This document shows positions 1,198 through 51,077 of a DNA stretch of 64,000 nt, piece by piece. Below the pieces are notes generated by a model, which did no database searches, had not been told where the DNA came from, and saw only the letters and a program-made list of their open reading frames with translations. The translations under genes were made by a program, and so were the position numbers. Each line of letters opens with the position of its first letter. Position 1 is the stretch's first letter. The DNA lies in contig OZ253496.1 in NCBI GenBank assembly GCA_965262115.1, positions 608,001-672,000 of the forward strand, written 5' to 3'. The DNA comes from Nitrospinales bacterium. Its GTDB lineage: Bacteria; Nitrospinota; Nitrospinia; Nitrospinales; VA-1.

Positions 1198-3585
1198 ATG
1201 AAAAAATCACTGAAAAATCAGAAGCCCACTAGACCAAAAAAGAAAAAAGAACGTTCCAGGTTCGGAAAAATTTTCTTTATCACGTTTTATTCCATCACCC
1301 TTTTTTGTTTGGTCGCAGGCTTTGTCGGAGCAGGCTTTATATATTTCCACTATTCTCAGGACCTTCCCGATGTCCGTGAACTAAAAAATTATCACCCCAG
1401 CACCATCACCCAGATTTATTCCGATGGGAATGAAAAAATCGCCGAGTTTTATATAGAAAAACGTATCATGATCCCGCTTGAGAATATTCCCCTGGCCTTG
1501 AAGCAGGCCTCTCTAGCGGTTGAGGACTCTAACTTCTACTATCACTTTGGCATTGACCCTAAAGCTATTTTCAGGGCTTTTATCACAAATCTGAAGGCCG
1601 GCCATGTGGTGGAAGGTGGAAGCACCATCACCCAGCAATTGTCCAAAACACTGTTTTTATCCAGCGAACGTACATTACCCCGAAAAATCAAGGAAGCTAT
1701 TCTAGCTGTCAGGCTGGAACTGGTTTTCACTAAGGATGAGATACTTGAAATGTATCTCAACCAGATTTATTACGGCCATGGCAGTTATGGTGTGGAAGCT
1801 GCCGCCCACACCTATTTTGGCAAAGGTGTTGCCGATCTAACCATAGCGGAATGCGCCCTGATTGCCAGTCTGCCAAAAGCCCCCAATCACTACTCGCCCT
1901 ATAAAGACCCGGAGCGTGGTCGAAAAAGAAGAAACCATACTATCCGCCGAATGGCCTACCTCTCCTTCATCACCAGGGAAGAAAAAAAACAGGCCCTGAA
2001 TGAAGAGCTTCATTTGGGTGAAGTCACCACCATGCTCAACAGGGCTCCTTATTTTGTGGAACATATACGGCAATTTCTTGAAGGGAAATATGGTAGCACC
2101 AAACTTTATCGCGGCGGTTTAAAAGTTTATACGACTCTCGATATTAATTTACAGGAATCCGCTCAGAGAGCTATCAAAGAAAATTTAAGAATCGCAGACA
2201 AACGATATGGATATCGAGGCCCGTTAGGCACCCTGTATTTATCCAAAGGAGAATCGGCCATCCAGGAAACTCTTATCAAAATGAACCAATTTGAAGAGGG
2301 TGAAAGCATCACAGAAGGCAAAATTATCAAAGGTGTTGTTTGGTCGGTGGGTGAAAAACAGGTAGAGGTTCTTTTAGGGCTCGATTTTGGAATCATTAAT
2401 ATTCTCGATATGAATTGGGCACGGCCTCCCAACACCCAGCTCGATGGAAGGTGGGAAAAAATCAGAAGTCCGAGCCAGGCTCTTGCTCCGGGAGATTTGA
2501 TTTTAGTAAAACCACTCAGGATTAAAAATGGAGGCTGGTCGCTGGCTCTTGAGCAAGAGCCGGATGTGGAAGGCAGTCTGGTAAGCCTGGATCCTAAAAC
2601 CGGCCATTTGAAGGCAATGGTCGGAGGTTATAACTTCTCCAAGAGCCAGTTTAACCGGGCCGTACAAGCCATTCGACAACCCGGCTCCGCCTTCAAACCC
2701 ATCATTTATGCCGCAGCCATCAAAGAAGGTTTTTCCCCTGCCAGCATCATCATAGACTCGCCGATAATATTTAAAGAAAAGGAAAATGCTTTTGACGAAT
2801 GGAAACCGGTGAATTTCGAACAAAAATTTTATGGACCAACATCACTGAGAACCGCCCTCACCCACTCCCGCAATGTGGTGACGGTCAAACTCATGCAAAA
2901 TATTGGAATAAAGGGAACCATCAGGCTGGCAAAGAGTATGGGAATATCGAGCAACCTGGAACCCAACCTGTCCATTTCTCTGGGATCATCGGGTTTAACA
3001 CTTTTCCAACTCACTTCTGCCTATTCGGCATTTGCCAATAACGGAACCCTGATCAAACCCAACGCAATCAGAAATATTAAAAACCGTAAAGGAGAAATTA
3101 TATACACTTCCACCCCCGAAATCACCCAGCCGATTGCGCCAGGTGTCGCTTATACCATCACAAGTTTATTGCAAAGTGTTGTAGAACATGGAACCGGTAA
3201 AAAAGTTAGAGTGCTTAATCGACCTGTAGCAGGAAAAACAGGCACCACCAATAATTGCGTAGATGCCTGGTTCATGGGCTACACACCCGATTTGGTAACC
3301 GGGGTTTGGGTCGGTAAGGACAAAGATGAATCTTTAGGAAGAAATGAAACGGGATCTCGCACTGCCATACCCATCTGGCTACAATTCATGCAGGAGGCTC
3401 TTGTCAATAAGCCCATCACTAATTTCCAAGCTCCAAGGGATATTCAGTATTTAAGAATCCTGCCGGAAGCAGGAGAGCCAGCTTCGTTCGACGAGCCCGG
3501 CTCCAGGTTCGAAATTTTCTTACAGGATCACCTCCCAGACAATGAGGAACCTTTCCTGGAAGATTCTTTTGAAGACACCTTTTGA
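1198..3585 (+). CDS. mrcA: penicillin-binding protein 1A (transglycosylase/transpeptidase)
   Basis: N-terminal TM helix; GT51 motifs EDSNFY, GGSTITQQ, RKIKE; TP motifs PGSAFK, SRN, KTGT. Confidence 0.93.
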   Translation: MKKSLKNQKPTRPKKKKERSRFGKIFFITFYSITLFCLVAGFVGAGFIYFHYSQDLPDVRELKNYHPSTITQIYSDGNEKIAEFYIEKRIMIPLENIPLALKQASLAVEDSNFYYHFGIDPKAIFRAFITNLKAGHVVEGGSTITQQLSKTLFLSSERTLPRKIKEAILAVRLELVFTKDEILEMYLNQIYYGHGSYGVEAAAHTYFGKGVADLTIAECALIASLPKAPNHYSPYKDPERGRKRRNHTIRRMAYLSFITREEKKQALNEELHLGEVTTMLNRAPYFVEHIRQFLEGKYGSTKLYRGGLKVYTTLDINLQESAQRAIKENLRIADKRYGYRGPLGTLYLSKGESAIQETLIKMNQFEEGESITEGKIIKGVVWSVGEKQVEVLLGLDFGIINILDMNWARPPNTQLDGRWEKIRSPSQALAPGDLILVKPLRIKNGGWSLALEQEPDVEGSLVSLDPKTGHLKAMVGGYNFSKSQFNRAVQAIRQPGSAFKPIIYAAAIKEGFSPASIIIDSPIIFKEKENAFDEWKPVNFEQKFYGPTSLRTALTHSRNVVTVKLMQNIGIKGTIRLAKSMGISSNLEPNLSISLGSSGLTLFQLTSAYSAFANNGTLIKPNAIRNIKNRKGEIIYTSTPEITQPIAPGVAYTITSLLQSVVEHGTGKKVRVLNRPVAGKTGTTNNCVDAWFMGYTPDLVTGVWVGKDKDESLGRNETGSRTAIPIWLQFMQEALVNKPITNFQAPRDIQYLRILPEAGEPASFDEPGSRFEIFLQDHLPDNEEPFLEDSFEDTF

Positions 3586-48683: not shown

Positions 48684-49547
48684 TTAAGAGGCATAGGCCT
48701 GTTTCTCGAATTCGGCAGGGCTGAGATAGCCGAGATATGAGTGACGGCGCTGCCGATTATAAAACACTTCGATATATTCAAAAATATCCTTCTTTGCTTG
48801 CTGACGGGTTTTGTAGTTCCGGTTATGAATGAGTTCCACTTTGAGAGTATGGAAAAAACTCTCCGCCACGGCGTTATCCCAGCAATCGCCCTTCCGGCTC
48901 ATACTGCACTCTATCCCATGAACATTGAGCAAGGCTTGAAAATCGTTGCAGGCATATTGAACCCCCCGGTCAGAATGGTGAATCAATCCCGGTTTCATGC
49001 CGCCGTTCTTCATTGCCATATTTAAAGCTCTCATTACCAACCAATGGGTTATCCAACGATCCATGGCCCAACCAATAACTTTACGGTGGAATAAATCCAG
49101 CGTCACCGCAAGGTATAACCAGCCCTCTTGAGTCGGGATATAGGTGATATCCGAAACCCAGCATTGACCGGGCTCAGCAACATTAAACCGCCGTTGCAGT
49201 TTGTTTTTTGCCACCGGGTGATTATGTTTGGAATCGGTTGTCACCCTGAACTTTCTTTTGTGCTTGGCAACGATTCCATGCTCGCGCATAAGACGGGCAA
49301 TACGATGCCTGCCAATGGCATATCCCTTGTCTTTCAAGTCCTCATGAATTCTGGGACTGCCATAAGTCTGGCGACTCTTCTTATAAACGGTTTTGATCTC
49401 ATCAACCCATCGCTGCTTCTCACGGCTCCTCAGGCTCTCGGGGCGGCTCAGCCAGGCATAGAACCCACTTCGTCCCACTTCCAGAACCCGGCACATCGGG
49501 CTTACCGGAAATGCTTCTCGATGATCCCGTATAAACCGATATCTCAT
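48684..49547 (-). CDS. IS3-family transposase OrfB (DDE integrase core)
   Basis: [42 protein letters not shown]. Confidence 0.93.
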
Positions 49548-49583
49548 TGGGAACCCTTCGAGTACCCCTTGTATGTTGTTCAT

Positions 49584-49792
49584 AAGGGGAATTTGTAGTA
49601 GTTGTACCTGTGAGCCCTGTGGGAAGCCGGTTTTGTGTTTTCCACAAGGCTCACAGGGTTTGATTCAGGGCACAATAGATCGTTTACCCCTTGGGCTTTT
49701 AAGCCCGTCCCGAAGCGCAGATCGTTGTGTCCTATTTTGATTAACCCGAACAGTTGCCTGGGCCACTGAGCCCGCATCGGCAAGGCTGGGAG
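49584..49792 (+). ncRNA. IS110 bridge RNA (5' hairpin, target-binding loop, donor-binding loop); ends approximate
   Basis: Hairpin 49607-49657; target guides TTTACCCCT (49683-91) and CCCGAAG (49709-15); donor guides ACAGTTGC (49750-57) and GCAAG (49780-84). Confidence 0.82.
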
Positions 49793-49800
49793 ACCAAATT

Positions 49801-50751
49801 ATGAATCAGAAACCCCATTTTATTGGCATCGATATTTCTAAACTCCATCTGGATGTTGCTGACAGCATGACTCAAGAAACCTGGCAAACCGCTAACAATG
49901 AGGAAGGAATTGCTGGTTTGGTCGAGAGTTTATCCGCCTTAAATCCTCCATTGATCGTTTTGGAAGCCACAGGCGGCTTAGAGATCCCGTTGGCTTCGGC
50001 CCTGGTTGCGGGTCGACTGCCAGTAGCCGTGGTCAACCCACGGCAAGTTCGTGATTTTGCCAAAGCCACCGGGAAACTGGCAAAAACCGATGTCATTGAT
50101 TCTCTTGTGCTGGCCCATTTTGCCAGGGCCGTACGTCCTGAGGTCAGGAAAATCAAAGACGAAGAATCTCTGGAACTCTCAGCTCTAGTGACACGCCGTC
50201 GCCAGTTGATCGAGATGCTGACCAAAGAAAAAACCCGTCTAAAACAAGCTCCAAAATGGATATGTAAAGACATTAAGGAGCATATCGAATCTCTTAAAAA
50301 ACGCTTGCGAAAAATCGATGGCGACCTTTCCAGAACCATCAAAAACAGTTCTGCCTGGCGTGAGCACGACCAGATCATACAAAGTGTTCCCGGTGCCGGT
50401 CCCGTTCTGGCTGTCAACCTCTTGGCCGGGGTTCCGGAACTTGGAGTTCTTAATCAGAAGCAAATCGCCGCCCTCATCGGTCTCGCTCCCCTCAATCGGG
50501 ACAGCGGAAAGTTCCGGGGCCGCCGGTGTATCTGGGGCGGCCGCGCCAATGTGCGTGCCGCTTTATACATGGCCGCCGTCACTGCCATGCAGCATAATCC
50601 CGTGATTCGTACCTTTTACACACGCCTCATCGAAAAGGGCAAACCCTTTAAAGTTGCCATTACCGCATGCATGAGAAAGTTATTAACGATCATCAATACC
50701 ATGATCAAAACAAAAACACTCTGGAATGAAAATCTCATTGCCAGCACTTGA
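49801..50751 (+). CDS. IS110-family DEDD recombinase
   Basis: RuvC-like DEDD (GIDISK, LEATGG, KTDVID); Tnp domain VPGAG...GLAPLNRDSGK with Ser; ACMRKLL; ORF intact. Confidence 0.96.
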   Translation: MNQKPHFIGIDISKLHLDVADSMTQETWQTANNEEGIAGLVESLSALNPPLIVLEATGGLEIPLASALVAGRLPVAVVNPRQVRDFAKATGKLAKTDVIDSLVLAHFARAVRPEVRKIKDEESLELSALVTRRRQLIEMLTKEKTRLKQAPKWICKDIKEHIESLKKRLRKIDGDLSRTIKNSSAWREHDQIIQSVPGAGPVLAVNLLAGVPELGVLNQKQIAALIGLAPLNRDSGKFRGRRCIWGGRANVRAALYMAAVTAMQHNPVIRTFYTRLIEKGKPFKVAITACMRKLLTIINTMIKTKTLWNENLIAST

Positions 50752-50802
50752 CATTTAACACAGTTGCTTCGGGGCATGAAAGCCAATGAAGAGGACATCA
50801 CA

Positions 50803-51077
50803 AAGATAACTGTCGCCTTTTTTAATATGTCCCGCTCCATACGAAGGCGAGCGTTTTCTCGCCGCAACTGCTGCAACTCATCTCCCGGCTTAAGCTGTCC
50901 TTTGCCGGGAAACGCATTCCCCTGATCCTCCTCATACTCCTGTTTCCAGCGACCCAGAAGGGCAGAACGGATTCCCAGATCCCGGGACACCCGGGCAATG
51001 CTATCGCCTACTTCAATAACCAATCGAACCGCTTCTAACTTGAATTCTTTACTGAAACTCCTGCGTTTGGTTCCCAT
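50803..51077 (-). pseudogene. IS3 OrfA (HTH), 3' end disrupted by nested insertions
   Basis: RRSFSKEFKLEAV...LRRENARLRMERDILKKA; the natural end FSKGSQ* is recovered only after removing the insertions. Confidence 0.9.

Follow-up and report, generated by a model that had tools for sequence, protein, structure and literature searches.

An IS110-group insertion sequence from a Nitrospinales bacterium with a predicted IS621-type bridge RNA and guides matching a REP-like hairpin repeat

We analysed a window of 64,000 nucleotides (nt) from a Nitrospinales bacterium (assembly GCA_965262115.1, contig OZ253496.1, positions 608,001 to 672,000), which contains an insertion sequence (IS) of the IS110 group at window positions 49568-50768. 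Our reading, to which we give a probability of about 0.9, is that this is an autonomous element that chooses its insertion sites by means of a bridge RNA encoded in its left end. The evidence for it includes the following: the guides legible in the left end match both halves of the occupied site and both ends of the element, the scaffold around them covaries across relatives, the guides of these relatives predict their own flanks, and a diverged sub-lineage in the same genome occupies a different site that its altered guides match. By analogy, we infer the transcription of the RNA, the formation of a circle, the binding of the RNA by the protein, and catalysis.

The element measures 1199 base pairs (bp) when the CT dinucleotide that borders it on both sides is counted once. 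It consists of a 231-nt noncoding left end, one open reading frame (ORF), and a 15-nt right end past the stop codon. The left junction reads AGTACCC-CT-TGTATG (CT at 49568-49569) and the right junction ACAGTTG-CT-TCGGGG (CT at 50767-50768). A joint found in contigs omits 1199 bases (49567 to 50767), in agreement with this length, and empty sites hold one CT: the core is shared, and there is no duplication of the target beyond it. The only inverted repeat is a subterminal one of 3 bp around the donor (AAC at 50757-59 and GTT at 49575-77), with no long terminal inverted repeats. Together, a long left end, a short right end, and a short subterminal inverted repeat are the layout of the IS110 group. 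The protein has the two domains of this family, an N-terminal DEDD RuvC-like domain (Pfam DEDD_Tnp_IS110, PF01548: 90.3 bits for a cut-off of 29, 1.5e-25) and a C-terminal Tnp domain (Transposase_20, PF02371: 73.4 bits for a cut-off of 21.3, 1.9e-20). A phmmer search against the chains of solved structures returned two matches only, both over residues 1-304. The better one is the transposase of ISCro4 (PDB 9t56; 2.4e-33, 119 bits), a distant relative with the same domain order, and the other is that of IS621 (1.5e-30, 109.8 bits). Residues D11, E55, D97, D100, and S235-G236 align with D11, E60, D102, D105, and S241-G242 of IS621 (PDB chain offset by 2), which are described as the composite active site of that enzyme (Hiraizumi et al. 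2024, PMC11208158). The initial annotation, made from the letters of the window, had called the recombinase intact, and this holds; all five catalytic residues are conserved with respect to IS621 and ISCro4.

The left end folds into a 5' stem-loop (49607-57) followed by two stem-enclosed internal loops. The first, or target loop, is closed by the stem GGGCACAAT (49668-76) / GTTGTGTCC (49724-32) and by GATC/GATC; it encloses TTTACCCCT (49683-91), the hairpin GGGCTT/AAGCCC (49693-706), and CCCGAAG (49709-15). The second, or donor loop, holds ACAGTTGC (49750-57), the stem GGGC/GCCC (49760-63 / 49770-73), and GCAAG (49780-84). The junctions, stems, and guides listed in the initial annotation were all found in their places. 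The folding that it had suggested as a check gave -82.8 kcal/mol (z = -3.53; 0 of 200 shuffles as low), and RNAalifold recovered the loops that it had named. We then used relatives of the element, 80 loci with 48-73% amino-acid identity, and aligned the upstream regions of 52 of them. A compact alignment of 42 left ends comprises the window copy, one copy from its own genome with 88% identity, and 40 of the 49 distinct relatives, leaving out eight with long hairpin insertions and one near-duplicate. The scaffold is kept across relatives, with two short segments of the first loop, the guide columns, freely variable. RNAalifold on the 42 left ends gave 24 pairs, 18 of which show compensatory changes, and all 24 are among the 26 pairs named from the window. 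In this alignment, 94.7% of the cells of the 26 named pairs are paired (33.7-45.5% when the partners are slid), and 19 of the 26 pairs show changes on both sides (5-9 when the partners are slid). None of 500 shuffles reached any of five measures for the named pairs. On these comparisons, the left end is predicted to encode two internal loops on conserved, covarying stems, i.e., a bridge RNA of the IS621 type.

The loops match both DNA partners of the presumed reaction. In the target loop, TTTACCCCT is the sense of (nn)TACCC-CT, and CCCGAAG is the reverse complement of CT-TCGGG. In the donor loop, ACAGTTGC corresponds to the right end plus the C of the core, and AU-CG-GCAAG (49776-84) pairs CT-TGTAT with one G.T. 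For the relatives, the ends of the elements were called automatically, and the guides of each element were compared with its own flanks and with those of the other elements. The five non-core bases of the right target are perfectly matched in the own flank of 24 out of 35 elements, against 2 out of 1172 cross pairs. The left target is matched at 5 or more of its 7 bases in 27 out of 40 own flanks, against 71 out of 1556 cross pairs. Position by position, the left guides of the relatives match their flanks in 12% of cases at position 1, 47% at position 2, and 65-88% at positions 3-8. Given the low values at the first two positions, the effective left guide is about 7 nt in this clade. The initial annotation had observed that the left guide of the window element fits 7 nt and mismatches the adjacent AG, which is correct. 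It had explained the mismatch by an element that tracks a mobile repeat, and this cause is not needed given the values in the relatives. The AG/TT mismatch is therefore typical of the clade; the edge of the repeat may or may not contribute to it.

The handshake positions also agree with those of IS621. In IS621, these bases are described as lying 3' of each antisense guide and pairing position 7 of the non-cognate DNA (PMC11208160, PMC11208158). Here, the base after the right donor guide pairs position 7 of the target in 48 out of 51 distinct left ends (G:C in 36, T:A in 8, and wobble in 4), and the base after the right target guide pairs position 7 of the donor in all 51. In the window element, G49785 faces C7 of the target and C49716 faces G7 of the donor. 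The base after the left guide shows no regular match to either partner across relatives.

We searched the genome, a single 2.68-Mb contig, for other copies. BLAST placed the element at 29 sites, at 24 of which it exceeds 1000 nt; 22 of these 24 copies are 98.3-100% identical, and two are about 88% identical. The ORF of 316 amino acids is intact in 15 of the 24 copies, stops at 264 amino acids in 7, and stops at 172 in 2 (the diverged pair). The junctions are uniform, as the initial annotation had expected of other copies. Among 26 right junctions, 23 read CT-TCGGGG, 2 read CT-GCGGGG, and 1 reads CT-CGGGGC. Among 25 left junctions, TACCC-CT is found in 22 and ACCCC in 2, and the remaining one is nested in the left end of another copy. 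The genome also holds 28 uninterrupted, empty TACCCCTTCGGGG sites. Outside this genome, a contig of another organism carries a copy with 44 letter differences and one gap over about 1180 aligned bases (about 96% alike); the left flank of that copy is TACCC, and the right flank is TCGGGGCATGAA followed by a repeat tail that differs.

The element inserts at the beginning of a unit of 41 nt, TACCC-CTNC-GGGGCAyGAA...ATCACA. Sites differ from one another immediately before TACCC. What had been announced as a mini-element is a real 41-nt repeat whose left edge is exactly TACCC. An nhmmer profile made from 322 pattern matches gave 346 hits across the genome, of which 326 cover nearly the whole unit. 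The unit opens with a 4-bp GC hairpin whose innermost pair covaries (C-G in 192, G-C in 68, and T-A in 15), and the CT core is formed by the innermost C of the stem and the first base of the loop. There are four loop alleles, TAC, TCC, TGC, and TTC, with 28-42 empty copies each (empty TACCCCTNCGGGG sites by loop base N: A 42, C 30, G 38, and T 28), and the main lineage of the element is found in TTC only. It occupies at least 11 distinct left-flank contexts, all with N = T; if the loop base were irrelevant, the chance of this would be (51/163)^11, or about 3e-6, with the contexts treated as independent. As a short, GC-rich hairpin repeat with hundreds of copies, the unit resembles the repetitive extragenic palindromic (REP) sequences. 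The search for a REP-associated tyrosine transposase (RAYT; Y1/HUH, PF01797) gave 0 matches in this single-contig genome, which is 93.9% complete, and matches in the control genomes. As no RAYT was found, the unit is referred to here as a REP-like hairpin repeat, and the term REP, taken strictly, is avoided.

The two 88%-identical copies lie in CT-GCGGGG. Their right guide is CCCGCAG instead of CCCGAAG, and the base after their left guide is G instead of T. From its letters, this diverged sub-lineage appears to carry a compensatory guide change toward GCGGGG sites. We considered the T-to-G change as a handshake position and rejected it, because the handshake bases of IS621 sit 3' of the antisense guides; in our reading, it lengthens the left guide by one base, which lies over position 10 of the target. 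The assignment of the element to the bridge-RNA architecture of IS621, with a CT core, made in the initial annotation, is thus supported by the covariation of the scaffold, by the guides that predict their own flanks, and by this change.

In the window, the IS110 element lies within an IS3-family element of the opposite strand, between its orfA (HTH_Tnp_1) and orfB (rve). The 41-nt unit (49563-49569 and 50769-50802) sits 14 nt after the A6G slippery site of the IS3. All 15 copies of this IS3 carry the unit: 8 also hold the IS110 element, 4 have an intact empty site, and 3 have a mutated site. With the unit removed in silico, orfB is in the canonical -1 frame behind the slippery site, and with the unit present, it is in the +1 frame. 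Hence, the 41-nt unit is itself an insertion into the IS3. This would make three nested layers of selfish DNA, with the repeat inside the IS3 and the IS110 element in turn disabling 8 of the 15 IS3 copies.

The association with IS3 raises the question of how the copies multiplied. The family may be real and most of its copies may still result from passive spread, inside IS3, by segmental duplication or by homologous recombination, in which case the window copy may never have inserted itself. Nine left flanks are the same IS3 sequence, all 7 copies with a 10-bp deletion touch IS3, several copies have IS3 on one side only, and the window copy has both flanks in common with the copy at G000 1775110. 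Against this, intact copies with 99.0-99.7% identity occupy at least 10 different non-IS3 left contexts, and the four IS3 copies with an intact empty site coexist with occupied ones. We consider passive spread unlikely as the source of most copies, while taking it seriously; it concerns the history of the element, not its mechanism, and is compatible with the bridge-RNA explanation. A second alternative bears on the mechanism itself. The recombinase could recognise the hairpin repeat by protein-DNA contacts alone, the matches between loops and flanks being coincidental and the left end a mere 5' untranslated region. The target is indeed a structured hairpin, a preprint on ISPpu10 reports a stem-loop specificity that goes beyond base pairing (bioRxiv 10.64898/2026.03.19.712850), and the RNA is predicted from sequence only. 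But guides and flanks co-vary across relatives with unrelated targets, in the proportions given above, one change of a target base is mirrored by two guide changes within the genome, and the handshake positions co-vary as well, which makes recognition by the protein alone very improbable. It is equally hard to credit that the conserved flanks are the tips of a longer composite element and the site specificity an artefact of misdrawn ends: the 12 nt past the right CT are nearly the same in 23 of the 26 junctions, but the 28 uninterrupted sites have their halves contiguous, about 330 units occur without any IS, the repeat tails beyond 12 nt vary between occupied sites as they do between empty ones, the same IS3 position is found with the IS (8) and without it (7), and contigs skip exactly 1199 bases.

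Several observations weigh against the bridge-RNA reading. Rfam 15 has no family matching the plus strand at E-values up to 1, and the bridge RNA is known here from DNA alone, the listed public runs being contigs, none of them RNA. The site in the window fits the left guide at only 7 of 9 positions (AG instead of TT). The automated calling missed or mis-called some ends of the relatives, and five right flanks that match at 3 of 7 positions, including the two core bases, were counted as misses. The evidence for retargeting consists of two pseudogene copies with a common 40-nt right flank and may therefore count as a single insertion event. Part of the copy number does not stand for independent insertions: IS3 sequence adjoins at least 11 of the 24 copies, including the 7 that have the 10-bp deletion, and these copies could owe their spread to IS3 or to recombination. 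Lastly, a right-end-to-left-end joint, as expected of a circle, was not seen in four public contig sets, but contigs are unreliable for this and the result counts neither way. We also rejected the joint skipping 1199 bases (contig sets X2 and X5) as a trace of excision, because the IS-free IS3 copies of the genome itself (7 out of 15) give the same joint.

By analogy with IS621, the proposed cycle would run as follows. The element would leave as a circle in which the right and left ends abut at a single CT. To judge from the letters, TTGACA would then lie 17 nt from TATGTT, and this would create a sigma-70-type promoter, with the start of the transcript near 49584. The junction promoter would drive an RNA of about 210 nt and then the recombinase gene. 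The donor loop would pair the circle junction, ACAGTTGC pairing with its bottom strand, and the target loop would pair the genomic site, (TT)TACCCCT(T) pairing with its bottom strand. A tetramer of the DEDD/Ser recombinase would then exchange the top strands at CT through serine linkages, and resolution would follow. On this scheme, the main lineage would use the TTC loop variant only, and the diverged lineage would have been re-aimed at TGC. On how such elements multiply, a 2026 preprint argues for copy-and-paste through a single-stranded circle, and a 2026 Nature paper argues that excision is less efficient than insertion. Either fits a family at 24 copies. The coordinates of all features are given in Table 1.

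Table 1. Features of the IS110-group element and of its surroundings (positions in the window).
Feature	Positions	Strand	Remarks
Left target AGTACCC	49561..49567	+	The 41-nt repeat unit begins with TACCC (49563-67); flanks before TACCC vary by site
CT core, left junction	49568..49569	+	
Noncoding left end, 231 nt	49570..49800	+	Begins with TGTATG (right-donor half); identical across all main-lineage copies
TATGTT, -10-like hexamer of a putative promoter that would form only in the circular form	49572..49577	+	Read by eye; putative function
Predicted bridge RNA	49584..49795	+	5' end placed from the -10 hexamer; 3' end approximate
5' stem-loop	49607..49657	+	Present in the minimum free energy and centroid structures
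Target-binding loop module (basal stem, guides, inner hairpin)	49668..49732	+	Helix 1: 13 pairs, 12 changed on both sides
Left target guide TTTACCCCT plus one extra base (T; G in retargeted copies)	49683..49692	+	
Right target guide CCCGAAG (reverse complement of CT-TCGGG), then handshake position C49716, then G49717	49709..49717	+	
Donor-binding loop module (CCC/GGG basal stem, guides, inner hairpin GGGC/GCCC)	49745..49790	+	
Left donor guide ACAGTTGC, right-end ACAGTTG plus the C of the core	49750..49757	+	
Right donor guide AU-(CG)-GCAAG, pairing CT-TGTAT with one G.T; handshake G49785 next	49776..49785	+	
Recombinase gene, 316 amino acids	49801..50751	+	Catalytic D11, E55, D97, D100, and S235 by alignment
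TTGACA, -35 hexamer of the junction promoter, overlapping the stop codon	50748..50753	+	Read by eye; putative function
Left donor ACAGTTG plus CT core, right junction	50760..50768	+	
Right target TCGGG (50769-73) plus the remainder of the 41-nt repeat unit to ATCACA	50769..50802	+	
IS3-family orfB (rve integrase core), split from orfA by the IS110 insertion	48684..49567	-	
IS3-family orfA (HTH_Tnp_1)	50803..51077	-	A6G slippery site 14 nt from the repeat unit

The right-donor half of the element, TGTAT, is very similar to the donor of IS621. In sequence, the element shows each defining feature of the IS110 group, and of a bridge RNA of the IS621 type, that can be tested in this way; the bridge RNAs were compared by means of the descriptions in the papers. 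Both belong to the IS110 group and have a long left end, a short right end, a CT core, and the DEDD and Ser residues, and in both the RNA has the order 5' stem-loop, target loop, donor loop. The left target guide is 9 nt long and reads as the top strand does, the one for the right target is antisense with AG at its end, and the left donor guide has 8 nt and ends at the C of the core. The right donor guide consists of AU, two unpaired bases, and GCAAG, with a G.T pair at donor position 12. The handshake positions, a putative promoter split across the junction of right end and left end (RE-LE), and a natural target in a hairpin repeat complete the resemblance. The structures of IS621 from Escherichia coli are described with an 8-nt left donor guide and with a right donor guide that has two flipped-out bases and a non-canonical G:T at donor position 12 (PMC11208160, PMC11208158). 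Durrant et al. 2024 (PMC11208160) report that the IS621 promoter is assembled across the RE-LE junction and that bridge RNAs are predicted in 85.7% of the catalogued elements of the IS110 group, and the targeting of a hairpin repeat by IS621 is known (Choi et al. 2003). There are also differences. The protein is only distantly related to that of IS621, as its phmmer score indicates. The natural right target guide pairs 7 nt in the window element and 4 nt in IS621, and the window element has the larger 5' stem-loop, of 51 nt. Instead of the E. coli REP, its target is a repeat of 41 nt that contains a 4-bp hairpin, in a genome in which no RAYT was found, and the host is a marine Nitrospina-type bacterium. 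When the complete genomes of E. coli were searched with blastn using 11-base words, only three matches of 78 nt were obtained, all within the IS110 transposase genes of plasmids.

Two other groups of elements are relevant to the comparison. ISPpu9 and ISPpu10 of Pseudomonas putida are IS110-family elements whose copies are all described as lying within one repeated intergenic hairpin (PMC12288879; bioRxiv 10.64898/2026.03.19.712850), and for ISPpu10 it is proposed that the target stem-loop provides a second level of recognition (bioRxiv 10.64898/2026.03.19.712850). The window element differs in that its CT core is inside the hairpin, as the last base of the stem and the first of the loop, and in that its repeat family has four loop variants, one of which is used by the main lineage. 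The IS1111 group, with its seekRNA, has the same family of DEDD recombinases and an RNA-guided choice of sites. As described, its RNA is encoded in a long right end and its subterminal inverted repeats are long, whereas the window element has the RNA in its left end and a 3-bp AAC/GTT repeat.

The initial annotation had presented the element as having a new natural specificity. The specificity is new, but the principle is not, because hairpin-aimed IS110 elements (IS621, ISPpu9, and ISPpu10) were already described. The mechanism has been known since 2024, and the element, a clear further example of it, does not alter what is known of this mechanism. It adds a well-documented natural ortholog of the bridge recombinases, from a lineage of marine nitrite oxidisers, and this ortholog is a candidate for screens of that kind, which are already running. 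The genome itself displays the specificity of the element, with 24 copies, 28 empty sites, three unused loop variants that serve as built-in negative controls, and a re-aimed sister lineage. The rules that link guides and targets can conveniently be tested on it, through a right guide of 7 nt, an effective left guide of 7 nt, and the handshake positions. For the annotation of the genome, it explains why many IS3 copies are interrupted, identifies the 41-nt repeat as a favoured place of insertion, and points to likely sites of rearrangement.

A 73%-identical relative on a 1193-nt Nitrospina contig (L033, positions 97-226) has the guides ATTACCCCT and CCCGGAG. To judge from their letters, they would direct insertion to TACCC-CT-CCGGG, which is the hairpin of the 41-nt repeat in its TCC loop variant. 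With lineages aimed at TTC and TGC, and the guides of this relative for TCC, one may speculate that the bridge-RNA element and the family of hairpin repeats, for which no RAYT was found, co-diversify in one genome, a tentative idea that we would rather bet against. If it is true that the structure of the hairpin also gates recognition, this would be a natural system in which to measure how guides evolve when they follow a diversifying target. The 41-nt unit is often found in tandem or next to other recurrent modules, gagctttgcataacccgagat upstream, ctagctcagcatgacaata downstream, and short tandem repeats of TACCCCTTC, which points to a mosaic repeat system.

Some copies of the element have unusual structures. 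The seven with the 10-bp deletion and an ORF cut to 264 amino acids (G000 1896475, 1418001, 2013360, 1463653, 1635422, 1935080, and 2034345) all adjoin IS3; they look like a defective lineage that is carried along by IS3 or moved in trans. Five copies have IS3 on one side only (G000 1811279, 1296052, 1418001, 2013360, and 2034345), which suggests rearrangements between copies, either homologous or guided. At G000 2144617-2145980, the bases 1-166 of a left end stop at a CT within the bridge-RNA gene (GTGTC-CT) and are directly followed by a full copy. We rejected the interpretation of this nested copy (G000 2144617-2144781) as an off-target event at a half-matching site, since the pseudo-site GTGTC-CT-ATTTT resembles neither donor nor target. 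Two short fragments of the left end are found in inverted orientation at G000 2519310-2519438.

The end of the bridge-RNA locus overlaps with the translation signals of the recombinase. The GGG that forms the 3' strand of the basal stem of the donor loop is part of a GGGAG Shine-Dalgarno sequence (49788-49792), located 8 nt ahead of the ATG, and a folded RNA could therefore mask translation. In relatives, the Shine-Dalgarno sequence is separate and lies farther downstream.

The only Rfam family that matches the bridge-RNA locus is sX15 (RF02234), which does so over its full length (model 1-159), on the antisense strand, and below the gathering score of 55. It was found in 3 out of 11 sources: in the window (49654-49810, minus strand, 35.4 bits) and in two relatives (L030 1049-1203, minus strand, 41.1 bits; L047 1052-1197, minus strand, 38.2 bits). 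The RNAs sX15 and asX7 of Xanthomonas are described as complementary and plasmid-borne, with 10 homologues in Stenotrophomonas maltophilia (Schmidtke et al. 2011, PMC3300014). Such multi-copy, plasmid-borne RNAs would fit an insertion sequence, and sX15 and asX7 may correspond to the opposite strands of an IS110 left end. Two relatives from Burkholderia are flanked by another Rfam family, Bp1_684 ('Burkholderia sRNA'), at L096 921-1027 (minus) and 2307-2403 (plus), and at L102 343-452 (minus) and 2307-2402 (plus), the last of these matches exceeding the gathering score. Bp1_684 looks like another repeat that serves as a landing site.

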